Assembly (NCBI GenBank): GCA_964354685.1
Contig: CAYHAM010000002.1
Location: forward strand, 71,058-135,057
Direction: 5' to 3'
Length of the DNA stretch: 64,000 nucleotides
Source: an uncultured Methanosarcinales archaeon
Lineage (GTDB): Archaea; Nanobdellota; Nanobdellia; Woesearchaeales; JAGVZT01
In this document: piece after piece, positions 3,376 through 44,302 of the stretch
How the letters are laid out: every line of letters starts with the position of its first letter
How positions within the stretch are numbered: position 1 is the first letter of the stretch
The notes under the pieces: model-generated
Database searches by the model: none
The model's input: only the letters and a program-made list of their open reading frames with translations
What the model was told of the DNA's origin: nothing
Position numbers and translations under genes: made by a program

Positions 3376-5406
3376 ATGAAGATACTCTTCTATGCCATAA
3401 ACGGGGTGGGTTTAGGCCATGTGAACAGAACCCTAGCAATAGCCAAAGAGATAAGAAAACTAAGCCCAAAAGCCCATATAATGTTTGTCACCAATTCTCA
3501 ATTTCCTGATTTAATTGAAAAAGCTAACTTCCCTTACATAAAGCTGCCAATCTTTGAAGGAGACCCTCTTACAAAGGATATGACAAGATACATACCTTAT
3601 TTAGTAAATGAAAAGCTGATAGAAGCAACCTTGTATGACTATGAGCCAGATGCTGTTGTTTATGACACCCATTTTCCATTTGGAACTGTTAAAAAAGCAA
3701 GTGAATTCAATGTTAAAAACATACTAATACTTAGAAAGCTGAAAAACAAGGTTCTTGATGATTACATAAAACAGTTTAAGCATTTTGATCTAATAGTCTT
3801 GGCCCACTCTGAACAAGAGTTTTTAGATATGAAAGTTTCAAAACAATTAATACAAAAGATAAAGAATAAAGGCATTGTGTTTGTTGGTCCAATCATAAGA
3901 AAACCAGAAAATATAGAACCAAATTACAACTTAAACAAATTTAACATCCTTGTAACAGCTGGTGGAGGAGGTTGGAATGATTCCAAGAAGTTTGTTGAAA
4001 TTTGTCTAAAAGTTTGCAAAAAAATTGTTAATAAAAACAAAAACATCAATTGCTACATCATAACAGGCCCTTTATACAGATGGAATATTAATCATATCAA
4101 AAATAACAACATTATAATCAAAAGCTTTGAACCCAAACTGATAGATCTAATGCAAAAATGTGATTTGGTTGTTTCTCAAGCAGGGTATAATGTATGCAAT
4201 GAAATCATGCTAACAAAAACACCAGCAATAATTATCTCAAGAAAAGACCCACTTGAAGACCAAAGAGAAAGGGCAAAATGGCTTTCAGAAAAAGGTGTTG
4301 CAATAACAATCAACACCTTAAATGAAAAAACATTAACAGAAGCTATTGAAAAGTTTTACCAAAATAAAGTTCTACAAACAAAGATGAAGAGAGCATTTTC
4401 TAATATTAAACTTGATATAGGTAATGAAAGATTATCAAAGATGATAATAAATTTGATACCAAAAAGAATAGAAAAACAGGTGAAGCTTTCAAGAAAAAAA
4501 CATAAACTCCTGGATTCAAAATATAGGCAAACCCAACAAATAGAAAAAAACCAAACAAATCTGTTGGAAGAAAAAGGCATACAGGAACAATGGGATACTC
4601 TACTAAAAAAAGAAACAAACCTTAGACAAAAACAAGGCGATATCTATTCCAAATTAGAACCATTATATAAAAAAATAAGAGAGTTAAAAAAACAAACACC
4701 ACAACAAGAATACATTAAACAACTCAATCCATTAGAAAAACAAAAACAACAACTCTTAAAACAAAACAAAAAACTAGAAGAACAAACTAAAAAACTAAAA
4801 GAACAAAACAAAACACTAAAAAACAAAGAGCCCTTTAAAACACTACTAGAACTACAAAAAGAACTCGATCAAAAATATGAAGAACTCTTTGAGCCATACA
4901 ACATCCAGATTGGAGAAGTAATACAGAAACAAGAGCTTGTTCTTGAGGGAAAATACACTGAAAAGACTTGGAATGCACTTGAAAAACAAAAACAAAGTTT
5001 GGAATCAGAAAAACACCAATTCTGGCAAAAAGAGTTAAAACCAATAGAAGACAAAGTTAACCTATCCAAAGCCAAAGTTAAAACATACACTAAAGAACAT
5101 GGCATCTTAGATATTAAAGAGATTGACAAAGATATTGAATCTCTATGGCAAGAAATCAACAAAAACAACAAAGAGCTACAACTTATAGACAACGACATAG
5201 AAAATCTCAACAAAGAAACTAATAAAATCCAAAAATTAGTTGACAAAAAATACAACAAACAACTCCTTCCTCTAGATTACAAGCTAGACAAAATACTCAA
5301 CGAAAAACAAGACTTCCTAAAAAAGCACAAACTATTTAAAGATTTCAAAAGACTGGACAAGGAAAGGGAAAGATTAAATAAAGAGATTTCAGAGCTGCAG
5401 GATTAA
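3376..5406 (+). CDS. UDP-glycosyltransferase (GT1/GT28 MurG/MGT-like N-terminal domain) fused to a ~300-aa K/E/Q-rich coiled-coil tail
   Basis: MKILFYAINGVGLGHVNRTLAIAKEI... (G-rich loop + GHVN), LVTAGGGGW, SQAGYNVCNEI; C-terminal half is low-complexity coiled coil (QKQQLLKQNKKLEEQTKKLKEQNK...). Stop at 5406, next ATG at 5408. Confidence 0.7.
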   Translation: MKILFYAINGVGLGHVNRTLAIAKEIRKLSPKAHIMFVTNSQFPDLIEKANFPYIKLPIFEGDPLTKDMTRYIPYLVNEKLIEATLYDYEPDAVVYDTHFPFGTVKKASEFNVKNILILRKLKNKVLDDYIKQFKHFDLIVLAHSEQEFLDMKVSKQLIQKIKNKGIVFVGPIIRKPENIEPNYNLNKFNILVTAGGGGWNDSKKFVEICLKVCKKIVNKNKNINCYIITGPLYRWNINHIKNNNIIIKSFEPKLIDLMQKCDLVVSQAGYNVCNEIMLTKTPAIIISRKDPLEDQRERAKWLSEKGVAITINTLNEKTLTEAIEKFYQNKVLQTKMKRAFSNIKLDIGNERLSKMIINLIPKRIEKQVKLSRKKHKLLDSKYRQTQQIEKNQTNLLEEKGIQEQWDTLLKKETNLRQKQGDIYSKLEPLYKKIRELKKQTPQQEYIKQLNPLEKQKQQLLKQNKKLEEQTKKLKEQNKTLKNKEPFKTLLELQKELDQKYEELFEPYNIQIGEVIQKQELVLEGKYTEKTWNALEKQKQSLESEKHQFWQKELKPIEDKVNLSKAKVKTYTKEHGILDIKEIDKDIESLWQEINKNNKELQLIDNDIENLNKETNKIQKLVDKKYNKQLLPLDYKLDKILNEKQDFLKKHKLFKDFKRLDKERERLNKEISELQD

Positions 5407-5407
5407 T

Positions 5408-6841
5408 ATGCGGAGGATAAAAGGGGTGGATAAAAACACCATTATAAAGTATTCTTTATTAGTACTAACCTTATTTTTAATACCTTTATTATCACTCTTT
5501 TTTATAGAGGGCACAACCCTTGCTTCAAAACTTGATTTCCTCTTTCAAATCCAAAAACCATTTTTAGTGTTGGGAGTTATGTTTGTGATATTGTTTTATC
5601 TAACAAAAGATAAAAAGATCATAAAAAAACCTAAGCTAAATTATTACTTTTTGATATCATCAATAATCCTTTTTCTCATATTGTCTGCACTTCAAATACC
5701 TTTTTTTGATGCCTTGCAATCTGGTTTAATACAAGTAACAGATCACGGGATAAAATATGACAAGGTTGGTTTTCTTGGTAATACTTTTTACAAAGGAGAA
5801 ACAACGCTAAATCAAAACATAAGTTTGATGAAAAGGATTTACTTAAACGAAATACCAGAAAGCCCTAAACTAAAATGGTATGGTTCATGGTTAGATGGCG
5901 ACAATGATGGTGTTTTTGGACGGGATTTTAAGATTTTTTTAAACATTAACAATCATGGGTATGATATAACTCAACAATTTTCTTCCCTTGACCAAGGAAG
6001 TACAGGATTGATGGAAACAACCATTGATCCACAAGACCTAAAAATAGGTGAGAACACATTGAGTTTTTGGATTCAATCCAACAAAAGCTTTGAAGCCATA
6101 ACATTGATAAAACATATTTACTATCATGAAAACTCTTTCATAACCTATGATAATGGAAAAACATGGCTGCAAGATGATGGAATGTTGCTAGCATTCCTTG
6201 AAAAAGATATCAAAATACATCCAATAAAGAGAATAATCTTCTCCTACAAACCTTTGTTTGTTCTAATATCCTCTATATTGTTATTCATAGGCTTTTTTGG
6301 TTTAAACTATTCAAAAGACTTGTTCAAAAAAGCAGATCTTGAGATATATGCTTCTGCTTTTGCAAGCATAGGTTTTTTCTATGGCACAGCTTTCATTAAA
6401 CAAAACTGGCGACCAATAGCAAACATTGTTGTAAGCCTAGTGTATGCACTTAGCTCTATATTTTTTAAAAATGTAATTGTTGATATAACCAATCCACACT
6501 GTCCATTCCTTGTTGTTAAAGATTTTTCATCAAGAATCTGTGAATCATCTTCTGGAGTTGAGTCAATAGGATATTTTACCTTGTTATTTTTCCTAATATT
6601 AATAACAAACTGGAAATCAATTGACAAGAAAAAAACATTGATCTTTTACTTCATTGGACTAGTAGGTAGTGTTATTGTAAACACCTTAAGGATATTCTCA
6701 ATAATAATGGTAGGAATCTACATAGATCCTGAGTTTGCCCAAGGAATATTCCATACAAATGTTGGTTGGATACTGTTTTTAATATACGCTGCTGCTTATT
6801 GGTTTTTATTATTACCTTACATTAAGAAAAAGAAAAAATGA
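5408..6841 (+). CDS. Archaeosortase/exosortase-family transpeptidase with a ~190-aa extracytoplasmic insertion after TM3
   Basis: Polytopic membrane protein; conserved exosortase motifs seen: Cys in C-x-SS-G-x-ES (RICESSSGVESIG), Asn/Arg in VNTLRIFS, C-terminal H..GW (FHTNVGWILFL); K-rich C-terminus. Confidence 0.7.
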   Translation: MRRIKGVDKNTIIKYSLLVLTLFLIPLLSLFFIEGTTLASKLDFLFQIQKPFLVLGVMFVILFYLTKDKKIIKKPKLNYYFLISSIILFLILSALQIPFFDALQSGLIQVTDHGIKYDKVGFLGNTFYKGETTLNQNISLMKRIYLNEIPESPKLKWYGSWLDGDNDGVFGRDFKIFLNINNHGYDITQQFSSLDQGSTGLMETTIDPQDLKIGENTLSFWIQSNKSFEAITLIKHIYYHENSFITYDNGKTWLQDDGMLLAFLEKDIKIHPIKRIIFSYKPLFVLISSILLFIGFFGLNYSKDLFKKADLEIYASAFASIGFFYGTAFIKQNWRPIANIVVSLVYALSSIFFKNVIVDITNPHCPFLVVKDFSSRICESSSGVESIGYFTLLFFLILITNWKSIDKKKTLIFYFIGLVGSVIVNTLRIFSIIMVGIYIDPEFAQGIFHTNVGWILFLIYAAAYWFLLLPYIKKKKK

Positions 6842-7431
6842 AAGCATACTTAATACCACTTTTAACATATATCCTAACCCCCTTAATATTAAATTTCTTT
6901 ATTAAAAATATTTATATCTCGTATTTTGTTGGTATTATTCTGACAGGAATTCTGCTTTTTTATTTCAGAAAACACTACAAAATAAAATTAAGAATAAAAC
7001 TCTTACCTTTTGTTATTGGAATTATCATTTTCCTTGTTTGGATATTTATCCCAAATATTTATCCTTTTTTCATTAGCACACAATTTGTTCCAACAAACAC
7101 TTCTTTTTTATTATTCAAATTGCTTGCAATGATAAGTGTTGTTCCCTTGACAGAAGAGCTCTTTACTCGTGGTTTCTTGATAAGATACTTTGCTACAAAA
7201 GATTGGAAAAAGGTTCAAATAGGCAAGTTTACCTGGCTTTCCTTTATTATTACAGTTCTGTTCTTTGGCTTTTCTCACAACAGGTGGTTATCAGGACTAA
7301 TTGTAGGAGTATTACTCAATCTTTTGTTATATAAAACAAAGAATTTGGGAGATTGTATTATTGCTCATAGCTTTGCAAACCTGTTGGTAGGAGTCTATGT
7401 TATATACACAAACTCTTGGTTTTTGTGGTGA
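6838..7431 (+). CDS. CPBP-family (CAAX/Abi, PF02517-type) intramembrane metalloprotease
   Basis: Motifs TEELFTRGF (EExxxR), FGFSHN (FxxxH) and IAHSFANL (second His) in a 6-TM protein; start overlaps archaeosortase stop by 4 nt. Confidence 0.8.
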   Translation: MKAYLIPLLTYILTPLILNFFIKNIYISYFVGIILTGILLFYFRKHYKIKLRIKLLPFVIGIIIFLVWIFIPNIYPFFISTQFVPTNTSFLLFKLLAMISVVPLTEELFTRGFLIRYFATKDWKKVQIGKFTWLSFIITVLFFGFSHNRWLSGLIVGVLLNLLLYKTKNLGDCIIAHSFANLLVGVYVIYTNSWFLW

Positions 7432-7488
7432 TTTATCACTCTAAAATCCTCAAAAACTAATTTAAACTACTTATATTTAAACAGTAAT

Positions 7489-8406
7489 ATGGGGGTTAGT
7501 ACAGAGCTAAAAGAGTGGGTTAACAAGGGATTAAAAAAAGGCTACTCAAAGGACAAGCTTAGACAGGAGCTTACAAAGGCAGGTTATTCTGATAAGGACA
7601 TAACTTCTGCTTTAAAGGAAACAGGATCTAGCCCAAAGCGTAATCCTCTAGTTATTGGTATTGTTTTGATTGCAGTTATTATTGGATCTATTTACTTGTT
7701 TAATGCATTGCAGACAAAGGTCATTGTTCTTGAGGCTGAAAAGGACTTTAATTTGGGAGAGTGGGTGAGGGTAGAGCCGGAAGGCGACTATGTTGTTATA
7801 AACAACGAGACTGAAATTTGGAGTAGACCTTTCAACCTAAAAAAACTTTCCAATTTTCGCGAAGCACAAAAAATAAATGTCAGGGTTATTGCCAAAGGCG
7901 GTGAGGGGGAGGAGGAAAACCTGATTCTCATTTTAGAGGTTGTTAATCAGAGCCATTATGGAAATTTTGAGAACTCAACAATTTATCCTTCAATAGTCAC
8001 TGTCATTTCAGACGTAAGCGGCAATAAGACAATAGAGACCCGCTTCTCTGGCAAATATTTGAACGGAGTGATGAATGACAAATTGGTTCAGAAAAAAGGC
8101 ACTTTTGATACGTCCAACGCAGTCTTTATGAATAGCAGATTCCAAGATATGGTTATCGAGGGCAACAAAACAATCTTTTATTACAGAAAGGATAAATGGC
8201 CTGTGCTTTCTGTTGTCTTTGGAGAGGACCTCAACAACTGGAAGTTGCTGGAGATATCCTCAACAGAGTGGCAAAGTTTTCTGATTCAGTTTGACATGAA
8301 TAGGTTTTCAGACTTTGAAAATGCGGAATTAATATTCGAGTTAAGCACAGACACTTTAAACCCTATACCTACATACATTGATAAAGTTTATGTCACTTTA
8401 GAATAA
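7489..8406 (+). CDS. N-terminally anchored membrane/surface protein, paralog A (short cytoplasmic N-domain, one TM, ~230-aa external domain)
   Basis: MGVSTELKEWVNKGLKKGYSKDKLRQELTKAGYSDKDITSALKETGSSPKRNPLVIGIVLIAVIIGSIYLF...; first ~80 codons nearly identical at DNA level to 8756.. paralog. Confidence 0.6.
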   Translation: MGVSTELKEWVNKGLKKGYSKDKLRQELTKAGYSDKDITSALKETGSSPKRNPLVIGIVLIAVIIGSIYLFNALQTKVIVLEAEKDFNLGEWVRVEPEGDYVVINNETEIWSRPFNLKKLSNFREAQKINVRVIAKGGEGEEENLILILEVVNQSHYGNFENSTIYPSIVTVISDVSGNKTIETRFSGKYLNGVMNDKLVQKKGTFDTSNAVFMNSRFQDMVIEGNKTIFYYRKDKWPVLSVVFGEDLNNWKLLEISSTEWQSFLIQFDMNRFSDFENAELIFELSTDTLNPIPTYIDKVYVTLE

Positions 8407-8420
8407 ATTTCAAGTAAATA

Positions 8421-8648
8421 CTATCTCAATTTTTTCTTTATTATTATAGACAAACAGATGACGGCTAAAAGTGCTAAGACAGACGTGGCACCAGAAAATT
8501 CTGGTACGCAGTTACAACTCGCGTCGCAAACTTTTGTACCTGGGCAACCGCCGTCACACCCATTGCCTGCAAAACACGCCCCGAAAGCAACCGAAGAACT
8601 AAGTAGGATGAGAACAAACATGGTTAAAACCAAGGCACCTCTTTTCAT
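8421..8648 (-). CDS. Tiny secreted Cys-rich protein with PEF-CTERM-like sorting signal (putative archaeosortase substrate)
   Basis: MKRGALVLTMFVLILLSSSVAFGA (signal peptide) + CFAGNGCDGGCPGTKVCDASCNC (7 Cys in 23 aa) + VPEFSG + ATSVLALLAVICLSIII (TM) + KKKLR. Confidence 0.7.
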   Translation of the reverse strand: MKRGALVLTMFVLILLSSSVAFGACFAGNGCDGGCPGTKVCDASCNCVPEFSGATSVLALLAVICLSIIIKKKLR

Positions 8649-8755
8649 CTTAACAATTCTTTATAGATTTCTAATATATAAAGTTTTTGTTTTTCTGTTT
8701 TATTATTCACAAATAGTCAAAAACTAATTTAAACTACTTATATTTAAGCAGTAAT

Positions 8756-9685
8756 ATGGGGGTTAGCAAAGAGCTAAAAGAGTGGGTTAACAAGGGATTA
8801 AAAAAAGGTTACTCAAAGGACAAGCTTAGGCAGGAGCTTACAAAGGTAGGTTATTCTGATAAGGACATAACTTCTGCTTTAAAGGAAACAGGATCTAGCC
8901 CAAAGCGTAATCCTCTAGTTATTGGTATTGTTTTGATTGCAGTTATTATTGGATCTATTTACTTGTTTAATGCATTGCAGACAAAGGGAATTGTGCTAGA
9001 GGCAGAGAAAGATTTTAAGTCTGGTGACTTTGGTGTGGAGTTCGAGCCCTTTACTGATTACATCAGACTCAGCAGTAATGGCTATATCACAACCGAATCT
9101 CTGAATCTTAAGGAACTTAAAAACTTTGAAAAAGCAGACAAGATCAATGTTGAATTTATTGCCAGAGGAGAAACAGGCAAGGCAGAAAACATAGTCTACA
9201 CATACGAGCTTCTTGATGGTGAGACATTTGACAATTTGGAGGATTCAATGAATTACTCAACCAGGATAACTTTGCTCTGTGATATAACTTGTGACAAGAC
9301 TCTTGAGAAAAGCCTGAGCGGACAATGGCTGAACAGAGTCATGAATGAGAGACTTAACCAGGAAGAAGACACATTTGACCAGGGTGAAATCTTTGTTTCA
9401 CACGCCAAGTTCAAGGACATAACTGTTGAAGGGAACAAAATGGTTATACGATATGAGAGGAGTATCTGGCCTGTTGTTTATGTATCAACCTGGTCCACAG
9501 AATGCTTCTCCTGCAAAAAGCCTGCTGCGGTGGAAATATCTTCACAGGAATGGGAAACCTACACTGTACAGTTTGATTTGGCTGACCCGAAATCAGATTA
9601 TTCCTACCTGGGTATAGAATTGTCAACTGATGAAGAAAACCCAAAGCCGGTCTACATAGACCAAGTAATTGTCAGCTTAAAATAA
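8756..9685 (+). CDS. N-terminally anchored membrane/surface protein, paralog B
   Basis: Same N-terminal 80 aa as paralog A; diverged C-terminal domain with 4 Cys (CDITCDKT...STECFSCKKP). Confidence 0.6.
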   Translation: MGVSKELKEWVNKGLKKGYSKDKLRQELTKVGYSDKDITSALKETGSSPKRNPLVIGIVLIAVIIGSIYLFNALQTKGIVLEAEKDFKSGDFGVEFEPFTDYIRLSSNGYITTESLNLKELKNFEKADKINVEFIARGETGKAENIVYTYELLDGETFDNLEDSMNYSTRITLLCDITCDKTLEKSLSGQWLNRVMNERLNQEEDTFDQGEIFVSHAKFKDITVEGNKMVIRYERSIWPVVYVSTWSTECFSCKKPAAVEISSQEWETYTVQFDLADPKSDYSYLGIELSTDEENPKPVYIDQVIVSLK

Positions 9686-9688
9686 GCC

Positions 9689-9931
9689 TTACCTTAATCT
9701 TTTCTTTATTATCACAGCCAAGACAAAAACACACAGCATGGCTAGGATAGCAGTCACGCTTGAGAATTCAGGAACACACCCACAAGGAGGACCATCACAC
9801 GTCTGAGTGGGAGGAACGCATCCACCGTTACAGCCTCCATATCCGTCATTAACGCACGCACCAAAAACATTTGACGCACTTAACAATAAAACAGTTACAA
9901 GAATTATTAAAACCAAAGCACCTCTTTTCAT
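9689..9931 (-). CDS. Tiny secreted Cys-rich protein with PEF-CTERM-like sorting signal, paralog 2
   Basis: MKRGALVLIILVTVLLLSASNVFGA + CVNDGYGGCNGGCVPPTQTCDGPPCGC + VPEFSS + VTAILAMLCVFVLAVII + KKRLR. Confidence 0.7.
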   Translation of the reverse strand: MKRGALVLIILVTVLLLSASNVFGACVNDGYGGCNGGCVPPTQTCDGPPCGCVPEFSSVTAILAMLCVFVLAVIIKKRLR

Positions 9932-10017
9932 CTTAATGCCTCTTTAAAAGCTTTTATATATAAATCTTTTGAATTTTCAAGCAATATTTAAATATGTAAC
10001 TCCAATATTAAAAAAAT

Positions 10018-12381
10018 ATGAGAGTGGCACTATTTGCCCCAGAATTCCCTCCTAAGATTGGAGGCATGGAGAGATATGCATTTGAGCTAGCAAAAAGTCT
10101 CTCTAAAAACAACAAGGTTGGTGTTATAACAAGAGAAGATCATAAAAATATTGATTACAAAAAGCTTGGTTTAGCAAGTGTTAATGTTAAATGTTTACTA
10201 ACTTTAGATTTTGACCAAGATTTAGAGCTTGTTCTAGATTATTTAAAAAACAACAAAGCAGACATTTTACATATCAACAATGCAGGATTTTCTCCTGCCA
10301 TACCCAAGATAAAATCAAGACTTGATATCCCAGTTGTTGTTACAGTGCATGGAAAGGACTTCCTAAACTCTTTTATCTACACTAAACAAAATAAGAACAT
10401 AAGTAAAGATATACTGAATGCTGACAAAATAATAGCAGTTAGTAACTATGTAAAAAGCAGGATCATTAGACAAGATTTTGAGCCAGACAAGGTTGCTATT
10501 ATCTTACATGGCACAGATATTACCTTATTTAAACCCGAGAAAAAAGACACCAAATTGCTAAAAAAGCTTGGAATATCAGAACAAGACTTTGTTCTTTTAA
10601 CAGTTTCTAGGATTACAAAAAGAAAGGGGATAATACAAGTAATAAAACTCTTGCCAAACCTAATCAAAGAGACACCAAACCTAACATACCTTGTTATTGG
10701 TCCAACAAGAGAAACTGATTATTACAACACAGTAAAATTACTTGTTAAAAAATTAGGGTTAGAGAGGAATGTTATATTTACTGGTTATGTAAAAAATAAG
10801 GAGCTTCCCAAGTATTATAACCTATGTGATATATTTTTAATGCCAACCACAGAACCTTCTGAGGGAGACATAGAAGGCTTCGGGATTGTTTTTTTAGAGG
10901 CAAACTCTTGTGCAAAGCCTGTAATTGGCTCAAAAAATTCAGGTGCTGAAGATGCAATCATCAACGGAAAAACAGGTTTTTTAGTTAATATTAATAATGA
11001 AAAAGAAATAGAAAAAGTAATTATTAGATTATTAAAAAATAAAGAGCTAAGAGAAAAACTAGGAAAAGCAGGAAGAGCAAGGGTTATCAAAGAACTCAAT
11101 TGGAACAATGTGACTAAAAAAGTTTTAAATGTTTATAACAGTGTTATAAAACCCACCATCTACTTCAACAACTACATAATTCACAATGAACACTTTATTG
11201 GTGGTGCAAACCTCTACTACAACGAAGTCTCTCAAATTTTGAATAAACAAGGTTTTAATCACCTTAATTTTCATGATGTTCTAAACAATCCTGACATTAT
11301 TAAAAAGATAAAAAACAAAGACACAGTCATCACAAACTGCGGTCCTTATGCTTACATCTACCATTACTTAAGAAAAAAACACAATCTAAACTTTAGAATT
11401 GTCAGAGATGTTCAGGCAGCACTGTGGTCCGGTTATTTGCTCCAAGAAACTTTATGCTCAAAGATGCAGCAAGATAATGATATTATCTTATTCCCTTCAG
11501 AATACGCAAGACAGCTCTATATCAAGCTATTCCCACACATAAACAAAAACAACTCCTTTGTCTGCTACCCCTGCATGAAATTTTTTCCTAAAATTAAAAG
11601 GGTTAAAAAACCTTCTGATGGCTTGACTATTGGTTATCTTGGAAGAGTAAGTTATGAAAAAAACTTCAAACAATTGTTAGAGGCATTTGTTAATGTTTCT
11701 AAAAAAATAAACACAAAACTCTTAGTCGCAGGAAGAGTGGAAGACACAAGATTTATGCCAAACAATATCAAAAAAATGCTAAATGACAAAGGTATCAAAC
11801 CCAACAACTACACCCATATCAACAATGGGGGATATCTCTCATACAACAAGGTCTGGGAATTGCTACAAAAGATTGATTTACTAATCTTTCCATCAACAGC
11901 AAACGTAGAAACACTCGGACGGGTTATATTAGAAGCTGCTCATCTTAATATCCCAATTATAGCTGCTGAGCATGCTGCTTCTCCCGAACTTTCAGATAAA
12001 AAAAATCTTCTTAAAGTCAATTACTTTAAAAAAGCCAACAGTTTGGTGGGAACCTGTGCTCTTGGAAGTATTGATGTTGATGAGCTATGCAATAAAATAA
12101 CAAATCACAAAAAACTATCAAAAAACACCAATATTAACCAATACAAGGATCATGATAAAAAACTATTAAAGATAATTGATGGAAAACAAAAAACAGAGGC
12201 TTTTAAAAAATTAGATCCAAACATAGCTAACTTCATCACAAAACTCAATGTTGTTGGACTAGATGCAAGTGAAAACCTTATTGAAAAAACCATTCCCATC
12301 ATAAAAAACTTTGATTACAGAAGATTAAGCTATGCCAGAGTTGTGTGCAAAAAGATAAATTTCAAGCCTTATCTCTATTAA
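10018..12381 (+). CDS. Two-domain glycosyltransferase (tandem GT4-like GT-B domains)
   Basis: N-half: GT4 signature EGFGIVFLEANSCAKPVIGSKNSGAEDAIINGKTGFLV; C-half: second GT4-like region ETLGRVILEAAHLNIPIIAAEHAASPEL. Confidence 0.75.
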   Translation: MRVALFAPEFPPKIGGMERYAFELAKSLSKNNKVGVITREDHKNIDYKKLGLASVNVKCLLTLDFDQDLELVLDYLKNNKADILHINNAGFSPAIPKIKSRLDIPVVVTVHGKDFLNSFIYTKQNKNISKDILNADKIIAVSNYVKSRIIRQDFEPDKVAIILHGTDITLFKPEKKDTKLLKKLGISEQDFVLLTVSRITKRKGIIQVIKLLPNLIKETPNLTYLVIGPTRETDYYNTVKLLVKKLGLERNVIFTGYVKNKELPKYYNLCDIFLMPTTEPSEGDIEGFGIVFLEANSCAKPVIGSKNSGAEDAIINGKTGFLVNINNEKEIEKVIIRLLKNKELREKLGKAGRARVIKELNWNNVTKKVLNVYNSVIKPTIYFNNYIIHNEHFIGGANLYYNEVSQILNKQGFNHLNFHDVLNNPDIIKKIKNKDTVITNCGPYAYIYHYLRKKHNLNFRIVRDVQAALWSGYLLQETLCSKMQQDNDIILFPSEYARQLYIKLFPHINKNNSFVCYPCMKFFPKIKRVKKPSDGLTIGYLGRVSYEKNFKQLLEAFVNVSKKINTKLLVAGRVEDTRFMPNNIKKMLNDKGIKPNNYTHINNGGYLSYNKVWELLQKIDLLIFPSTANVETLGRVILEAAHLNIPIIAAEHAASPELSDKKNLLKVNYFKKANSLVGTCALGSIDVDELCNKITNHKKLSKNTNINQYKDHDKKLLKIIDGKQKTEAFKKLDPNIANFITKLNVVGLDASENLIEKTIPIIKNFDYRRLSYARVVCKKINFKPYLY

Positions 12382-12575
12382 TAGGTACCATGAATTGTAA
12401 CAGGTCTACCTTCTTCTGGATCTAGCCAAGCTGTTAAACCCTTTGCACTCTTTGATGCAACAATGCTTGCAACAGCAGCTGTACCAACAATTGCTCCAAC
12501 TGTTAGAACTGATTTTTTAGAGATCCTACCATTCTCTCTTTTCAAGAACAAACCTAGTTTTTCCTTTATACCCAT
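12378..12575 (-). CDS. Small hypothetical membrane protein (one TM helix)
   Basis: 65-aa ORF with hydrophobic VLTVGAIVGTAAVASIVA; overlaps GT4 stop; no homology recognised. Confidence 0.25.
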   Translation of the reverse strand: MGIKEKLGLFLKRENGRISKKSVLTVGAIVGTAAVASIVASKSAKGLTAWLDPEEGRPVTIHGTY

Positions 12576-14382: not shown

Positions 14383-14650
14383 TAAACACTCGCGAGGTTG
14401 CTACAAATTATTAAAATTTTATTACTAAAAATAACCTTCGCGGGGTTGCTTGTTATAACCTCATTATACGCAACCCCGTGGTGATAGGGTTCCTATCCTC
14501 TTCAGGAAGCAAGGAACCTCAGATAAGTACACGCTTGATATGTCAGAATACCAGAGGTATTCTGAGCATGATCAAAAACAATCTTTGTTGTTTTTGACAT
14601 AAGCAAGAGATATATCACTCGTGAATTATTTTAAAATTAAAAAGAAGATT
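14383..14650 (+). repeat. Copy 1 of a conserved structured intergenic element (hairpin gcggggttgc/gcaaccccgt + 50-nt conserved core + ACTCGTGAATT tail)
   Basis: Core gttcctat..ctcttcaggaagcaaggaacctcagataagtacacgcttgatatg is ~90% identical to 23607-23660; 3' end atcactcgtgaattattttaaaatt matches 23727-23750. Confidence 0.6.
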
Positions 14651-14687
14651 GTTATTGAAAATATTAATAAAGTAGAATTATAAAACA

Positions 14688-15119
14688 TCACTTACAATCA
14701 ATATCAATCCTGAAGTCTATGTTTCGTTCGGGGAAATACAGTTCTAAGCTTTTTGACACCACTTGGTTTGGTTGGATGTAACCAAGGCTTACAACATCAT
14801 AACTTATACCATCATTGCCTTTAAATAGTAATACCTCTGCATAACACTCTTTTTCAGTGGAAAATGTATGTTTAATATCAAAATTAATGAGAGTCTTTTC
14901 TCCCTCCTCCAACTCTAAGTTGGTAACAATTATCTTACCTAAGGGTCTGTTTTTGCACAGCAGAAGAATAATTATTATAAATCCGACAACAAAAACAATT
15001 GGAACAAATTTTTTATTAGAACTCTTGCTTTTCTTTACTATTTTTTTCCTAATGGTTTTTTTAATAGGCCTTTTACTTCTAGCTTTGTACCTCTTTTTTG
15101 CCATACTAAATCTACCCAA
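14688..15119 (-). CDS. Membrane protein with extremely basic N-terminal tail, one TM helix and ~90-aa external domain
   Basis: MGRFSMAKKRYKARSKRPIKKTIRKKIVKKSKSSNKK then FVPIVFVVGFIIIILLL. Confidence 0.5.
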   Translation of the reverse strand: MGRFSMAKKRYKARSKRPIKKTIRKKIVKKSKSSNKKFVPIVFVVGFIIIILLLCKNRPLGKIIVTNLELEEGEKTLINFDIKHTFSTEKECYAEVLLFKGNDGISYDVVSLGYIQPNQVVSKSLELYFPERNIDFRIDIDCK

Positions 15120-15211: not shown

Positions 15212-17827
15212 TTGATGAAAAATTTTTTTATATTAATGGTTATTTTCCTTGCAATAATTTCAACTGCTTCTTATGCAGCATTCTGGTGTCAATATAGAGT
15301 AAATGATGGAGAATGGGTTACAGGGCATAGTAGTAATACTGAATGTATTTATGAATTATACTGTGCCGAGGGGGATAAATATGACACAAGGATAAGGGAC
15401 ACAGGTACTACTCCTGACACATATCAAAGACTTGGCACACTATGGGGTGTAGCCAGAAGAGTAGGTACTGATGGCACTTGGGGTAATCAGACAGTACCCT
15501 CTTGCTGTAATGATGCAAATGATTGCTTATACGCAAGCAAGTGTTGGGATAATGGTTTAATTGCTGGAAGTATTCCTAACAGACACTACTGTAACAATGG
15601 AATATGGCAAGGAGGTGATGCTGGCTCTACTCGGTGCACAGCTATCAAAGGTTCTGGATATTGGGCTTTAGGAGGAGAGGTTGCTGCTAGCAACTGTTGT
15701 GGAGATGATACTAATGAGTTTCGTATAAGTGGAAGTGGCTACATAAGATGTTGTAATGCTTCCATTGATTGTGTTGATTCTACTGGGACTTGCAGGGATG
15801 GCACAGAGCTGTGTGGAGCTGATGGCAAGGGAGATGGTATTGACAATGATTGCAATGGACAAACAGATGAGATCTGCGAATGCAACCCAAGTGATACAAG
15901 ACAATGCGGCCCAAACACAGAAGATGGTCCATGCGAGTATGGCACACAAACCTGCCAGCCAGATGAGACATGGGGTGATTGCATAGGAGGAGTCTACCCT
16001 ATTAATGAGCTTTGTGTTAATGGAATTGATGATGATTGTGACAACTCCACAGACGAAGTAGAATGCTGTGGAAACGGAGATGATACAGACCCAGGTGAGG
16101 AGTGTGAACCTCCAAGCACATATTTATCATCATGTGACCAATATGGAGCAACATACTTACAAGATTCTTGTGACTATAAATGTGAATTACAGGATGGCAG
16201 CACTTGTGAATCTGGTTATGCTGGCTGCACATCATATTCTGGATGTGATGGAATAGCTCCTGAGACTTGTATAGACACTAAAACCATTTGCACAAGCGAC
16301 TGCCAATATGAAGAAAGGGATAACAACCAAAACTATTGTACTGACTCCACTGGATGTGTTCCTTTCAGTTGGATCCCATCTGGTGAAGATGGTGTTGGTG
16401 AATATGACTTTGTTGGAGATGTTGAATGCTGTGGAGATGACTTTGATGAATTTTCCACATATTACAATATGGGAGCAACTGGTGGTTGTAATGACATCAC
16501 AATTGAAGAATGCATAGGACTGCCAGATAACACAAGTGATATTGCTTGCTGTAATAATCAAACAGACTGTGTTTTCCAAAAAACTTGTTACCCAATTAGT
16601 AGTCTGCTTGATATTGATGGTGATCTTATAAATGGAGAGTTTTGTAGTCAAGTTGATGATACAGAATGGAAAGATTGTGATATAAGCCAAAACGCATGTG
16701 AAAACACTTGTGGTTATACTTATGTAATGGGAGGAGAAAATAACACTTTTGGTGAATATGATGAAGGAAGTTCAACAGAGTGCTGTGGTGATGATGCTGA
16801 TGAAAGTGTTAATTGGAGACAAGTAAGTAGCCAAACAAAATTCTCTGGTTATGAGGAGATCTACTCTAACCCAAGCGATAGAGCATGCTGCCAAAGCCCA
16901 AATAGCTGTGTTTTTAATGGAAAATGCTATATGGATGTAGATGATGTCAAAACCCTTTATGGAGTAACAGATGTATACGACTCTCCTTATAGAAACTTAT
17001 CTTACTTTGATTTAAATAATGATAGTGCGCTAGAAATGTGTGACCCTGGCAATTGGACAGATCCTTATGAATCTGAGGAAGGATGTGAAGATATGGGTGG
17101 TGTATGGATAAAAATTAATGGAGAAGATGTTTGCTATATTTATATCCCACCTGGACCTCCTAGCCCTCCTGAACCACCTGCACCCCAAGAGCCACCTGAT
17201 CCTAATAAACCCCAATACCCTGATCCACCCCCATCAGAGATTGCTGCAACATTCTATGGAAAAGTGGATAATATTGATGGCTTTAACATTAGTGGTGCTC
17301 TAGTTGAGTTTATAGGTACTTCTAAAATAATACCAGGAACAACAATCTGGTATTACACATATACAAATTCATCTGGTAATTACCTAATCTATGTTTTGGG
17401 TAATGCAACCTATGATATACTTGTTTCAAAGCAAGATTACCAATCTTCCTCAAAGATAATCCAATATATAAAAATACAAGATACAAAACAAGTAAACTTC
17501 ACATTAATTAGCTCTTATGAACAATGCACACAAGACTGCACATTCCAAGATGATGAGTATTGTCATGCAAGCTGTGATGGAAGGGTTGGTTGCCAATTTA
17601 ATAGCACTCAAACAAAGAACATCTGTAATGGAAAAGTGAGTGGATGGGTTGTTGACTATAATACAACCCATGAGATTATCTGTTGTGAAAGCTCACCTCA
17701 TGAAAAGAGATATTTACGAGTTGTGAAGATACAAACAGGTATTGATATTAAGAATATTGTGAGAATAATTAGATTGGTTATTCTAAGAGGCAAGCCAGCT
17801 AAGATGATAGTAGATACCTTTGGATAA
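15212..17827 (+). CDS. Large secreted Cys-rich protein with MopE-like putative metal-binding motifs, three CCGDD repeats, Pro-rich linker and C-terminal carboxypeptidase-regulatory-like beta-sandwich
   Basis: Signal peptide MMKNFFILMVIFLAIISTASYAA; GDGIDNDCNGQTDE and GIDDDCDNSTDE; NCCGDDTNEF / ECCGDDFDEF / ECCGDDADES; PPGPPSPPEPPAPQEPPDPNKPQYPDPPP; FYGKVDNIDGFNISGALVEF...NSSGNYLIYV. Confidence 0.7.
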   Translation: MMKNFFILMVIFLAIISTASYAAFWCQYRVNDGEWVTGHSSNTECIYELYCAEGDKYDTRIRDTGTTPDTYQRLGTLWGVARRVGTDGTWGNQTVPSCCNDANDCLYASKCWDNGLIAGSIPNRHYCNNGIWQGGDAGSTRCTAIKGSGYWALGGEVAASNCCGDDTNEFRISGSGYIRCCNASIDCVDSTGTCRDGTELCGADGKGDGIDNDCNGQTDEICECNPSDTRQCGPNTEDGPCEYGTQTCQPDETWGDCIGGVYPINELCVNGIDDDCDNSTDEVECCGNGDDTDPGEECEPPSTYLSSCDQYGATYLQDSCDYKCELQDGSTCESGYAGCTSYSGCDGIAPETCIDTKTICTSDCQYEERDNNQNYCTDSTGCVPFSWIPSGEDGVGEYDFVGDVECCGDDFDEFSTYYNMGATGGCNDITIEECIGLPDNTSDIACCNNQTDCVFQKTCYPISSLLDIDGDLINGEFCSQVDDTEWKDCDISQNACENTCGYTYVMGGENNTFGEYDEGSSTECCGDDADESVNWRQVSSQTKFSGYEEIYSNPSDRACCQSPNSCVFNGKCYMDVDDVKTLYGVTDVYDSPYRNLSYFDLNNDSALEMCDPGNWTDPYESEEGCEDMGGVWIKINGEDVCYIYIPPGPPSPPEPPAPQEPPDPNKPQYPDPPPSEIAATFYGKVDNIDGFNISGALVEFIGTSKIIPGTTIWYYTYTNSSGNYLIYVLGNATYDILVSKQDYQSSSKIIQYIKIQDTKQVNFTLISSYEQCTQDCTFQDDEYCHASCDGRVGCQFNSTQTKNICNGKVSGWVVDYNTTHEIICCESSPHEKRYLRVVKIQTGIDIKNIVRIIRLVILRGKPAKMIVDTFG

Positions 17828-17878
17828 GGACTTTTTCTAAAATATCAATTAACACAAAATTTATAAACCAACATATAT

Positions 17879-18397
17879 ATGAAAAGCATTATGAAAAAGG
17901 GGTACTTCTTTATGCTGGATGCATTTATATCAATGAGTATTATAGTTCTCAGCCTTATATTAATTTTATCATTCCACTCTTCAAAGCCATACCAAATGCA
18001 GGGGATATTCCTAGCACAAGACACCATGGACTTATTGGCCAAAACAAAAATATATGAGCTTGACAATGATTTTGTAATTAATCTCACCCTGGAAGGCAAT
18101 ATAACCAACACTGATTATTCATTGCTTGAACAAACAGCAGAGTTCTTTGTTACTAACCAAACAGAGCTTGCTCAAGATTTTATAATAAATGTCACTCAAA
18201 ATATGGTGTCTGACAAATACGGATTCGAGCTCAGAATTTACAATGACACAAATTTGTTTAATATAACAGTCACCCCTGGAATAAATCTACAAAATGAATC
18301 AAACATACTCTTAATCTCAAAAGAGATTGTTTCTGGTATGTTGGAAGATTACTCAACATGGGGACCAATGACAGCTGAGGTGAGAGTGTGGCAATAA
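17879..18397 (+). CDS. Archaeal type IV pilin-like protein (class III signal peptide)
   Basis: MKSIMKKG|YFFMLDAFISMSIIVLSLILILSF: KKG followed by a hydrophobic helix, typical PibD/EppA cleavage context. Confidence 0.6.
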   Translation: MKSIMKKGYFFMLDAFISMSIIVLSLILILSFHSSKPYQMQGIFLAQDTMDLLAKTKIYELDNDFVINLTLEGNITNTDYSLLEQTAEFFVTNQTELAQDFIINVTQNMVSDKYGFELRIYNDTNLFNITVTPGINLQNESNILLISKEIVSGMLEDYSTWGPMTAEVRVWQ

Positions 18398-42283: not shown

Positions 42284-43292
42284 AAGATCTACCCTAGAGA
42301 GATCTCTTGAATATTTGGTGTGTCCAGCAGATCAAGGAGAACTAGAGTTAGATGTTGCAAACAGAGACTGGATATCTGAAGGTAAATTTCAGTGCACAGA
42401 ATGTGATGCAACATACAACATAAGAAATGGTGTGCCATATTTCTTTGATGACGGCAATGGATATGAATGGGACAAAGACATCTCTGAAGAAAAAATTTTA
42501 GCCAGTATTATAGATTCAATAGGCAAAGATAGTATCACGTGGACACAAATAATTGCATTGAGTAACCTATTTTTAGATAGGTTTAGAGATAGAAAACAAG
42601 CAATTGATGCAATCTTTAAGGTTGTTGAAAGAGTTGTGGCAACCATTGATGCTAACAGTCAACTACAAGCATATCTAACACAAGCAGCAACTGCAGCAAG
42701 ATACAATTTAGAGAACTACAGAGGGACCTTCACTCTCCCAAATGACATCTTGAAGTTTGTAATAGGAAACTATCAGCCAAGTTCAGGAATTGTTGTTGAG
42801 GGGGCATGCGCAACAGGGGAATGTTTGTTACAACTAACTGAAGCCATAGGTTCTGACTTTTACTTGGGTTTAGACATTGCAGGTGCCATGGTAAGAAATG
42901 CCCAGCAACAGGCATTGGAAAACATGCTTTTTGTGCAAGCAGACATTTGTTCTCTACCAATTAGAACAAACTCAGCAGGAATCTATGTTTTAAACAATGT
43001 CTTTGACAGAGTCATGGACCCGCAGAAGGCATGCGAACAAGCTAATAGGATTCTCAACAAAGAGCAGAGTGAACTTGTTTTAAGCAACTGTGATCCATTA
43101 CAGTACGGTTATGTAACTGAAGAGGGTCTAGAAGTTACTTTTGTACCAGAAGAAAAGCAAATCAGTCTTGAGAAAGGTTTTGAGCTAGCAGGATTCAGAG
43201 TGGTTGTGGAACAAAAAGGCATATGGCCAATATATACTGTGGCCTATGATCAAGAATTCTTACCCTACAAAAGCTTGGGTGGGAGGAGGTAA
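42267..43292 (+). CDS. Trm112-like zinc-ribbon domain fused to a class-I methyltransferase-like domain (non-ATG start)
   Basis: LVCPADQGELELD...QCTECDATYNIRNGVPYF (Trm112/DUF343-type ribbon); later GIVVEGACATGECLLQL...LGLDIAGAM...FVQADICSLP resembles degenerate MTase motifs I-III; GC-richer than flanks. Confidence 0.5.
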   Translation: MFTPIRRSTLERSLEYLVCPADQGELELDVANRDWISEGKFQCTECDATYNIRNGVPYFFDDGNGYEWDKDISEEKILASIIDSIGKDSITWTQIIALSNLFLDRFRDRKQAIDAIFKVVERVVATIDANSQLQAYLTQAATAARYNLENYRGTFTLPNDILKFVIGNYQPSSGIVVEGACATGECLLQLTEAIGSDFYLGLDIAGAMVRNAQQQALENMLFVQADICSLPIRTNSAGIYVLNNVFDRVMDPQKACEQANRILNKEQSELVLSNCDPLQYGYVTEEGLEVTFVPEEKQISLEKGFELAGFRVVVEQKGIWPIYTVAYDQEFLPYKSLGGRR

Positions 43293-43297
43293 ACAAA

Positions 43298-44302
43298 ATG
43301 ACCGCAGTACCAATAAACGAACAAGTACCCGTGATAAAGGGTCTAAACTTGTCAAACAAGGAGCTTAGAAAAGCAGAGCTCAATAACAAGATGCTTCTCA
43401 TAGACATAGAAACAAGCAACAAGTGCAACCTAAACTGCCAGTATTGCTTTAGAGACATCTATGGAACAAAAGAGGCTTTAGAAAAAGAGCTAAAGCTTGA
43501 CAAGAGACTAGACTTAATTAAACAAGCAAAAGAGCTAGGATGTGAAACAATAAAGATAACAGGAGCAGGAGAGCCATTTGCAGACAAGGAATTTTGGCCA
43601 ATGATAGAATATGCCAACAAGCTTGGAATGTGGGTTTTGATCTTTACCAATGGCTCCTTGATTGATAAGAATGTGGTAAAGAGACTTGCAAAGATGAATG
43701 TGTCAATCATAGTCAAATGCAACTCTTTTAACGAAGAAAAAGAAGACACAATGGTTGGCAGAAAAGGATATGCAGAAAGGAGAAACAAGGCAATCCAATT
43801 CCTAATAGAAGAAGGATTCAACAAAACAAACCCAACAAGATTAGGAAGAGACTTAGTAATCACAAACATAAACAAGGATGAGCTTTATGACTCTTTGAGA
43901 TGGTGCAGAAAAAACAATGTTTTCCCTTTGTTCAGGCCTTTAATGCCAATTGGAGCAGCAAGGAAGCTAACTGATTGGATGATAAGCAAAGAAGAGACAA
44001 AAGCGATGTATGAGAAAGCAAGAGAAGTTGACAGCAAAGAGTTTGGCATAAACTACAATCTAACCCTGCCTTACATGGGAGGGGTATGGTGTAGGCAACT
44101 CCACTATGCTATCTATGTTAACATACTAGGAGAAGTCTATGCATGCACTGGTTCAAAGAAACTATTCGGCAACTTCAACAAACAAAGTTTAAAAGAGATT
44201 TGGAATAGCGAAGAGGCAAGGATAATAAGGAAAACACCTTATGAAAGCTGTCCACTCAGAGAATCCTATTGGAGAGGAGACAAAGACTATGACTGCATTT
44301 AA
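43298..44302 (+). CDS. Radical SAM enzyme with C-terminal SPASM/twitch-like domain
   Basis: CNLNCQYC (CxxxCxxC), ITGAGEPF, FTNGSL; C-terminal GGVWCRQLHYAIYVNILGEVYACTGSKKLFGN. Confidence 0.7.
   Translation: MTAVPINEQVPVIKGLNLSNKELRKAELNNKMLLIDIETSNKCNLNCQYCFRDIYGTKEALEKELKLDKRLDLIKQAKELGCETIKITGAGEPFADKEFWPMIEYANKLGMWVLIFTNGSLIDKNVVKRLAKMNVSIIVKCNSFNEEKEDTMVGRKGYAERRNKAIQFLIEEGFNKTNPTRLGRDLVITNINKDELYDSLRWCRKNNVFPLFRPLMPIGAARKLTDWMISKEETKAMYEKAREVDSKEFGINYNLTLPYMGGVWCRQLHYAIYVNILGEVYACTGSKKLFGNFNKQSLKEIWNSEEARIIRKTPYESCPLRESYWRGDKDYDCI

Follow-up and report, generated by a model that had tools for sequence, protein, structure and literature searches.

We analysed a 64,000-nucleotide (nt) stretch of contig CAYHAM010000002.1 (positions 71,058 to 135,057), from an uncultured archaeon placed in the Woesearchaeales. 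This whole stretch, with a guanine plus cytosine (GC) content of 35%, is referred to as the window. Two very short genes on its minus strand, W1 and W2, encode secreted precursors with a signal peptide, a cysteine-rich core and a C-terminal PEF-type sorting signal. In the reading that we consider probable, they are genuine micro-genes whose products serve as dedicated substrates of an archaeosortase-family enzyme and a CPBP protease encoded adjacent and upstream. An initial annotation of this DNA had located both open reading frames (ORFs) and recognized the three parts of the precursors, and our analysis bears it out on both counts. The ORFs, their parts and the promoter-like boxes (B recognition element, BRE) in front of them are as follows.

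8421-8648, minus strand: peptide precursor W1, 75 amino acids, full sequence MKRGALVLTMFVLILLSSSVAFGACFAGNGCDGGCPGTKVCDASCNCVPEFSGATSVLALLAVICLSIIIKKKLR
8580-8648, minus strand: signal peptide of W1
8508-8579, minus strand: core of W1, ACFAGNGCDGGCPGTKVCDASCNC
8421-8507, minus strand: sorting tail of W1, VPEF followed by a transmembrane (TM) helix, KKKLR and the stop codon
8675-8696, minus strand: BRE-like A-rich stretch and TTTATATA box, 27-34 nt upstream of the W1 ATG
9689-9931, minus strand: peptide precursor W2, 80 amino acids, full sequence MKRGALVLIILVTVLLLSASNVFGACVNDGYGGCNGGCVPPTQTCDGPPCGCVPEFSSVTAILAMLCVFVLAVIIKKRLR
9860-9931, minus strand: signal peptide of W2
9776-9859, minus strand: core of W2, ACVNDGYGGCNGGCVPPTQTCDGPPCGC
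9689-9775, minus strand: sorting tail of W2, VPEF followed by a TM helix, KKRLR and the stop codon
9957-9978, minus strand: BRE-like stretch and TTTATATA box, 26-33 nt upstream of the W2 ATG

Two cysteine-rich micro-genes on the minus strand

Both precursors begin with a positively charged N-terminus and a hydrophobic signal sequence (MKRGALVL...VFG or AFG), continue with a Cys/Gly-rich core and the motif C-V-P-E-F-S, and end in a hydrophobic helix and a basic tail. Searching the six frames of the window with a regular expression, we found PEF, TM helix and basic tail combined in no ORFs other than W1 and W2. The predicted mature cores comprise 24-28 residues with six Cys each, in the common framework C-x5/7-C-x3-C-x5/6-C-x3/4-C-x-C. 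These six Cys would be either disulfide-bonded or metal-bound. The initial count of six Cys (in 27 residues) is correct for W2, but that of seven (in 23 residues) is not for W1, as the seventh Cys of this precursor sits inside the C-terminal TM helix, outside the core. None of the Cys-rich cores matches a Pfam family, and a PDB search with the core alignment gave no match. We rejected the possibility of the core being a single repeat of a larger Cys-rich protein, since a hidden Markov model (HMM) of the core does not match such proteins.

Alignment-based scans yielded 55 loci with related archaeosortases; a contig scan with the single archaeosortase as query gave no match. L001 is a syntenic contig of Candidatus Woesearchaeota archaeon RBG_13_36_6, and the CPBP protein of the window clusters at 90% identity or above with one from this genome. 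The source of the window, whose proteins are singletons, is accordingly a relative of Woesearchaeota and belongs to the DPANN archaea. The gene order in L001 is archaeosortase, CPBP, partner, peptide, partner, peptide and GT4 glycosyltransferase, where partner denotes a membrane protein encoded convergently with the peptide (see below). Both peptide ORFs of L001, R1 (...FGACKSDGVGGCDGGCVPTWYTCDGPPCGCVPEFSS...) and R2 (...FGVCQLDGKGGCESGCGNGEVCRYPQYGCECVPEFSE...), are intact, and R1 (7313-7567, minus strand) is the orthologue of W2. Three further Woesearchaeota contigs, L002, L003 and L005, were reached via archaeosortase homologues 36-48% identical to the window enzyme. In L003 and L005 a partner homologue is convergent with a peptide of 69 residues (...SCCSKCGSCDPEFS) and 81 residues (...DDCCSKCGDCSPEFS), respectively, each continuing into a TM helix and a basic tail. 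In L002 and L004, the convergent gene encodes a secreted protein of 372 residues with 65 Cys, which ends in ...LCVPEFT, TM helix and basic tail; the L002 protein likewise matches no Pfam family. On L059, a contig of 942 nt found via its partner homologue, an ORF ending in ...CRHTTCKPEFT, TM helix and basic tail abuts the partner stop codon.

Intact sense products with signal peptide, Cys-rich core and tail are present on six contigs (the window, L001, L002, L003, L005 and L059), at archaeosortase identities down to 36%. The six core Cys are invariant in the four close copies (W1, W2, R1 and R2). Frameshift or absence in close relatives, which the initial annotation had named as a sign against the genes, was not seen: the peptide genes are intact there.

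ORF length alone does not set W1 and W2 beyond chance, as by our own estimate the six frames of 64 kb at 35% GC should contain a few dozen stretches of 75 or more codons without a stop. A protein search with W2 in 5.8 billion clusters returned only W2 itself, and the exact W1 sequence is absent from a collection of 15 billion proteins, so no gene with the W1 product has been called. The micro-ORFs might be chance or shadow ORFs, with the real features being plus-strand ORFs (8458-8727 and 9807-9947) or no ORF at all. Consistent with this, the NCBI annotation of the sister genome L001 calls an antisense ORF (7374-7583, plus strand) and not the peptide gene at 7313-7567. Moreover, the whole-gene ratio of non-synonymous to synonymous substitution rates (dN/dS) between W2 and R1 is 0.70, similar to that of other frames. 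Note that several frames give 0.6-0.8, hence the whole-gene value does not discriminate between frames and only a region-wise analysis is informative. However, the antisense frame is interrupted by a stop codon in W2, and an antisense ORF of at least 50-60 residues was not found in L003 or L005. The sense products are kept on the six contigs with signal peptide, six Cys and tail despite the divergence of the enzyme.

The region-wise analysis and the upstream sequences also speak against a shadow ORF. For the single orthologue pair W2/R1, the Nei-Gojobori dN/dS of the signal peptide is 0.30, that of the tail 0.19 and that of the core 1.68; the partner gave 0.26. These values show purifying selection on signal and tail in the sense frame. 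The core differs by 13.4 non-synonymous and 2.6 synonymous changes over 27 codons, with all six Cys unchanged, and the contrast between core and flanks has a Fisher p of 0.087. Diversifying selection on the cores, as initially proposed, is suggestive only. Upstream, all seven complete peptide genes have a TTTA(T/A)ATA-like box that follows an A-rich stretch and ends ~24-27 nt before the ATG. The box occurs in all four close copies and at the same distance in L002, L003 and L005, genomes of 43-46% GC included. It is a predicted archaeal BRE/TATA promoter that would give rise to a leaderless or short-leader mRNA. Note that a scan for sigma-70 promoters and intrinsic terminators is irrelevant to an archaeon.

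W1 and W2 stand beyond chance because of their tripartite architecture, their conservation in other genomes and the conserved promoter. These sequence comparisons lead us to regard the minus-strand micro-ORFs as the genes and the plus-strand ORF 8458-8727, initially pointed out as antisense to one of them, as a non-conserved shadow ORF. The chance explanation is strongly disfavoured, to the point of being extremely improbable.

The archaeosortase-family enzyme, the CPBP protease and the sorting signal

Upstream of W1 and W2 lie two plus-strand genes that the initial annotation did not mention, nor did it mention the invariant signature Cys described below.

5408-6841, plus strand: long-form exosortase/archaeosortase-family enzyme, 477 amino acids (TIGR04178, PF09721)
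6838-7431, plus strand: CPBP (Rce1-like) glutamic intramembrane protease, 197 amino acids (TIGR03008, PF02517)

The archaeosortase-family gene lies 1.6-2.9 kb upstream of W1 and W2, and its stop codon is overlapped by 4 nt by the start of the CPBP gene. The enzyme belongs to the superfamily, with 48.9 bits for TIGR04178 (cut-off 23) and 47.5 bits for PF09721 (cut-off 25.7). The candidate for processing the precursors is an archaeosortase-family protein and not a sortase, as had been supposed. As a long form, it contains an insert of ~190 residues (residues ~100-290 of the window enzyme) that is absent from the short forms of ~320-360 residues; hhalign detected no relation between this insert and the partner ectodomain. 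The CPBP protein has intact EExxxR, FxxxH and HxxxN motifs and scores 119.9 bits for TIGR03008 (pepcterm_CAAX, cut-off 81) and 57.7 bits for PF02517.

The nucleophile region of the window enzyme reads C-E-S-S-S-G-V-E-S (around ...SRICESSSGVES...) and not C-S-G-x-E-S. The canonical Cys is replaced by Ser, and the Arg motif (NTLRI) and the His motif (FHTNVGW) are retained. The sequence S-S-G-x-E-S with a Cys three residues upstream is shared by the enzymes of L002 (564-1940), L003 (10001-11398) and L005 (5053-6492). The L001 enzyme is N-masked at this motif. Every other fetched archaeosortase with a readable motif (25 loci) has C-S-G-x-E-[SG]; within these, L018 and L025 have an upstream Cys in addition (C-G-G-C-S-G). 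The pattern suggests that in this subfamily either the nucleophile is relocated or the chemistry is altered.

The sorting signal co-varies with the enzyme. A Cys at position -2 of PEF is found in 8/8 tails of the subfamily and in 0/29 PEF tails beside CSG-type enzymes (p = 2.6e-8), where the cases are not phylogenetically independent and L059 owes its place in the subfamily to its partner only. We therefore prefer to write the signal as C-x-P-E-F-[ST]. Proteins of 130-550 residues with ordinary PEF tails are encoded near many of the 55 related loci, indicating that the archaeosortase clade as a whole is PEF-specific. W1 and W2 have the architecture of PEF-CTERM proteins, with a signal peptide, a P-E-F signature, hydrophobic helix and basic cluster at the extreme C-terminus, and an archaeosortase-family gene nearby. 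Their tails align end-to-end with the 25-position PEF-CTERM model TIGR03024.

The loss of the canonical archaeosortase Cys makes a CAAX/myxosortase-like route a serious, if rather unlikely, alternative. The genes and the surface destination would be the same, but the side chain of the invariant Cys would be lipidated, CPBP would cut distal to it, and the Ser-substituted archaeosortase would be accessory or altered. Besides the invariant signature Cys itself, this route could draw on the CPBP gene, which has intact catalytic motifs and is translationally coupled to the archaeosortase gene. The CPBP protein weakly matches MrtJ (32.5 bits, cut-off 75) and Mrt_core (NF040914, 28.3 bits, cut-off 100), and the tails weakly match Synerg-CTERM, Loki-CTERM and Heimdall-CTERM. 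In addition, Haft has proposed that CPBP enzymes process Cys-containing tripartite signals, including archaeal CGP-CTERM (bioRxiv 10.1101/2023.06.07.544157). However, the Mrt_core score is far below its cut-off, and the CPBP protein is of the TIGR03008 type, which accompanies ordinary exosortases. The archaeosortase, which has kept its Arg and His motifs and has a Cys three residues upstream of the substituted position, may well be active, and the last Cys of the Cys-rich cores may simply be structural.

Partner proteins, module evolution and the surrounding gene cluster

The genes convergent with W1 and W2 encode two paralogous membrane proteins.

7489-8406, plus strand: partner A, 305 amino acids, paralogue of partner B
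8756-9685, plus strand: partner B, 309 amino acids, paralogue of partner A

As noted initially, each peptide gene is convergent with one of the paralogues: W1 with partner A (14 nt between the stop codons) and W2 with partner B (3 nt). This pairing is kept on the same six contigs, with a stop spacing of -4 to 32 nt across loci (excluding the first pair of L001, where the end of the peptide gene is N-masked). Among the 59 loci fetched, the partner-family HMM matched only in these partner/peptide loci. Because the pairing is conserved on six contigs, a functional partnership of peptide and membrane protein is well supported. The membrane protein might be a receptor, as proposed initially.

In partner A, three cytoplasmic helices form the N-domain; a single TM helix and a beta-rich ectodomain, which begins with V-I-V-L-E-A-E, follow. 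One L003 partner has a lipobox signal peptide (L-I-A-S-C) in place of the N-domain and TM helix, which places the conserved part of the partner outside the cell, on the same side as the peptide core. A protein search in 5.8 billion clusters returned only the partners themselves and their paralogues. When 1.84 billion representatives were searched exhaustively with a HMMER profile of the partner, only P0012 and P0013 emerged as additional members of the family; the remaining matches cover the N-terminal three-helix and TM module only. A PDB profile search with the partner alignment gave noise only. In the last ~70 partner residues, 5/7 aligned family members resemble the carbohydrate-binding module (CBM) family CBM60 (PF16841) at 12-24 bits (E 6e-5 to 0.2), below the cut-off of 28.2 bits. 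The ectodomain is possibly CBM-like, which we take as a lead only.

The N-terminal module (partner residues 1-78; 7489-7720 and 8756-8990) has the pattern W-V-x-K-G-L-K-K-G-Y-S-K-D-K-L-R-x-E-L-x-K-x-G-Y-S followed by the TM helix. It shows weak similarity to RecX_HTH2, and in the library of 1.84 billion proteins it heads ~40 otherwise unrelated proteins, including an alpha-2-macroglobulin of 1733 residues and Cys-rich proteins.

Partner and peptide genes together form modules. Identity is 95-100% between the heads of the two window modules (7432-7720 and 8700-8990, ~290 nt made up of the upstream region and the initial ~78 partner codons) and ~50% between the ectodomains of partners A and B. 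Module B is orthologous to the first module of L001, with 93-98% DNA identity between partner B and its orthologue (dN/dS 0.26, as above). Module A and the second L001 module are not orthologous, which gives an array A-B for the window and B-C for L001. Between the genomes, divergence is greater in the module head (dS 0.42) than in the ectodomain (dS 0.19), a pattern that looks like the signature of within-genome gene conversion or recombination at the module heads. The comparison suggests module turnover with concerted evolution of the heads.

The MKRGALVL leaders of W1 and W2 had been described as identical in DNA and attributed to a recent duplication. They are in fact nearly identical, agreeing at 23/24 nt and differing by one synonymous GCC/GCT change. 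The leader is also kept in the second genome, indicating conservation and providing no evidence of a recent duplication. Since the W1 and W2 modules beyond leader and module head share only ~50% DNA identity, the duplication is not recent.

Changing cores and exchanged modules could also point to released RiPP-like (ribosomally synthesized and post-translationally modified) or bacteriocin-like peptides with a signalling or antagonistic role. The tail would then serve only transiently, as a handle for export, and the partner would confer immunity or act as a receptor. We consider this highly doubtful. The fast-evolving core loops (dN/dS 1.68) and the module turnover between two close genomes (A and B in the window; B and a different C in L001) would fit, as would a CxxxCxxC radical-SAM gene inside the L002 cluster (4057-5250, minus strand) and the frequent linkage of CPBP proteins to bacteriocin loci (bioRxiv 10.1101/2023.06.07.544157). 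However, no radical-SAM maturase ORF with CxxxCxxC is present in the window cluster, the nearest such ORF being at 43250-44302, and the cluster contains no dedicated exporter. The equivalent gene in L002 encodes the 372-residue, 65-Cys protein and not a peptide. Furthermore, a tripartite tail with an adjoining sorting enzyme is a signature of anchoring, not of release.

The modules are embedded in a conserved cluster that is bounded by glycosyltransferase genes; two further genes follow downstream.

3376-5406, plus strand: GT28-like glycosyltransferase, 676 amino acids, with a long coiled C-terminal part (Pfam Glyco_tran_28_C, E 9e-14); first gene of the conserved cluster
10018-12381, plus strand: double GT4 glycosyltransferase, 787 amino acids (Pfam Glycos_transf_1 in two stretches, and Glyco_transf_4); closes the cluster
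12378-12575, minus strand: single-TM protein, 65 amino acids (...SVLTVGAIVGTAAVA...WLDPEEGRPVTIHGTY)
15212-17827, plus strand: secreted protein, 870 amino acids, 68 Cys, with a CarboxypepD_reg-like domain

The GT28-like gene has syntenic homologues in L001, L003 and L005, and the double GT4 gene is syntenic in L001, L002, L003 and L005. The latter protein is weakly similar to stp2 and stp3, glycosyltransferases of PEP-CTERM/XrtA systems. The gene of the 65-residue protein is convergent with the GT4 gene and overlaps its end; a gene at the same position is found in L002 (9593-9835, minus strand), and the protein has no family match. The C-terminus of the 870-residue protein resembles that of a 399-residue Cys-rich protein of L003 (12240-13439), the gene of which directly follows a partner paralogue beside the archaeosortase. 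The 870-residue protein may belong to the same surface system as W1 and W2. The L003 cluster also contains a radical-SAM protein of 698 residues (15964-18060, plus strand) and an HxsD-like gene (14551-15060, plus strand).

A putative anchoring pathway and its relation to known sorting systems

We propose the following pathway for W1 and W2. The BRE/TATA promoter in front of each gene would drive its transcription into an mRNA with a short leader or none. The precursor would be exported by Sec and its signal peptide cut after V-F-G or A-F-G, as predicted by the -3/-1 rule. A lipobox ([LVI][ASTVI][GAS]C) does not fit the end of the signal peptide, which reads F-G-A-C in W1, W2 and R1 and F-G-V-C in R2, with mismatches at positions -3 and -2 (or -1 in R2) to the consensus quoted in PMC12462473. 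The sequence V-F-G|A appears to suit signal peptidase I better than lipobox processing. The C-terminal helix and basic tail would retain the precursor in the membrane until the adjacent archaeosortase/CPBP pair cleaves at C-x-P-E-F-[ST]. By analogy to ArtA and PGF-CTERM in Haloferax, the core of 24-28 residues with its six Cys would be transferred to a membrane lipid. The product, among the smallest predicted archaeosortase cargoes, would be a mini-protein anchored to lipid, in which fast-changing loops are set on an invariant Cys/Gly scaffold. It may act together with the beta-rich ectodomain of the convergently encoded partner, peptide and partner forming exchangeable two-gene modules inside a cell-surface/glycosylation gene cluster.

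Several points weigh against this proposal. The canonical nucleophile Cys of the enzyme is replaced by Ser. The enzyme matches none of the ArtA-E models, with no match to ArtC (TIGR03762) at E ≤ 1, and its relatives score 35-46 bits for ArtC against a cut-off of 100. Given the substitution and the missing match to a curated subfamily, ArtA-like transpeptidation cannot be assumed, and experimental work on archaeosortases is confined to ArtA (PMC6098224). With W1 at 11.2, W2 at 9.7 and R2 at 18.0 bits, the tails stay under the PEF-CTERM cut-off of 23 bits for TIGR03024, and the strict PEF-CTERM membership initially assigned to the precursors does not hold. The scan for PEF-type ORFs covered 64 kb of the contig, which is 260 kb long, and further substrates of the enzyme may be encoded elsewhere. 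Binding between peptide and partner is conjectured from gene linkage. The CBM60 resemblance is sub-threshold, and the window copies A and B have no CBM60 match. AlphaFold2 models were of low confidence by the predicted local distance difference test (pLDDT): the W2 precursor reached 69 as a whole and 63-69 within the core, which does not suffice to assign disulfides, and partner B reached 48, unusable for a fold search.

The archaeosortase C/PEF-CTERM system (TIGR03762, TIGR03024) was reportedly described by Haft, Payne and Selengut in 2012. It shares with the window locus the tripartite signal of P-E-F, TM helix and basic cluster, the nearby archaeosortase-family enzyme and an archaeal host. 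The window locus differs in that enzyme and tails fall below the curated models, the signal contains the invariant Cys (C-x-PEF), the enzyme has the insert of ~190 residues and Ser at the canonical nucleophile position, and the cargo is of 24-28 residues and not a folded protein domain. In other archaea, both the pairing of ArtC with PEF-CTERM and the ArtA-dependent cleavage that leads to lipid anchoring are established (PMC5244752, PMC6098224). We modelled the proposed mechanism on the ArtA/PGF-CTERM system of Haloferax volcanii, where cleavage of the C-terminus goes together with lipid anchoring (PMC6098224). However, ArtA has a PGF signature and large glycoprotein substrates such as the S-layer protein, lacks an adjacent CPBP or partner gene, and keeps the canonical catalytic Cys.

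Among bacterial systems, the XrtA/PEP-CTERM loci for extracellular polysaccharide resemble the window locus in combining an exosortase-family enzyme and a TIGR03008-type CPBP protein with flanking glycosyltransferases. XrtE/VPEID-CTERM shares the V-P-E-x signature, and the XrtE model is among the better partial matches for the window enzyme and CPBP. In contrast, XrtE is an exosortase-CPBP fusion (TIGR04162), whereas the window has two genes overlapping by 4 nt. The window enzyme and CPBP reach 38.1 and 69.6 bits against the TIGR04162 cut-off of 150, the motif is VPEF and not VPEID, and the tails do not match the VPEID-CTERM model. The window lineage is archaeal, unlike the hosts of the bacterial exosortase/CPBP systems. 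We know of no partner gene in the NCBIfam family descriptions of the XrtA and XrtE systems. Giardia variant-specific surface proteins, knottins/defensins and SCIFF ranthipeptide precursors offer analogies, being membrane-tethered or secreted proteins of high Cys density with a small scaffold and variable loops. Unlike these analogues, the W1 and W2 cores have no Pfam or PDB similarity, and the window cluster encodes no maturase.

The myxosortase systems (MYXO-, JDVT-, Synerg- and CGP-CTERM) have a tripartite signal with an invariant Cys and an adjacent CPBP gene (bioRxiv 10.1101/2023.06.07.544157), but they lack an exosortase/archaeosortase, and the window CPBP protein is far below the cut-offs of Mrt_core and MrtJ. 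A hybrid pathway, not described before, would combine both routes. In this unlikely scenario, C-x-PEF would be handled jointly by an archaeosortase with a moved nucleophile (Ser at the canonical position, Cys at -3) and by CPBP acting on the lipidated invariant Cys. The resulting lipopeptides of ~25 residues with hypervariable loops would be read by cognate CBM-like partners and act as strain-specific tags for surface identity or attachment in DPANN archaea that depend on a host, with modules swapped by recombination at the near-identical ~290-nt heads.

In conclusion, the locus appears to work like an archaeosortase/PEF-CTERM system, yet falls below the curated thresholds for ArtC, PEF-CTERM, XrtE/VPEID-CTERM and the myxosortases. 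The genes, with their architecture, conservation, promoter motif, linkage and the co-variation of enzyme and signal, are firmly documented; cleavage, lipid attachment, Cys chemistry, peptide-partner binding and biological role are predicted. The micro-cargo, the invariant signal Cys, the relocated or Ser-substituted nucleophile and the obligatory convergent partner are not described in the literature searched. What is known of archaeosortases rests on one studied enzyme, ArtA, with large glycoprotein substrates, and nothing is known experimentally of PEF-type systems or of DPANN archaea in this respect. A cargo of ~25 residues would be a minimal natural substrate, small enough for a direct mass-spectrometric definition of cleavage site and anchor. 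A natural active-site variant that co-varies with a substrate Cys bears on the question of whether archaeosortases are one-step transpeptidases, and the locus physically links archaeosortases with CPBP proteases in archaea. Micro-genes of the W1/W2 type are systematically missed or mis-stranded in annotation, which probably leads to an underestimate of DPANN surface repertoires. Should peptide and partner act as recognition pairs, their modules would be candidate determinants of symbiont-host specificity.

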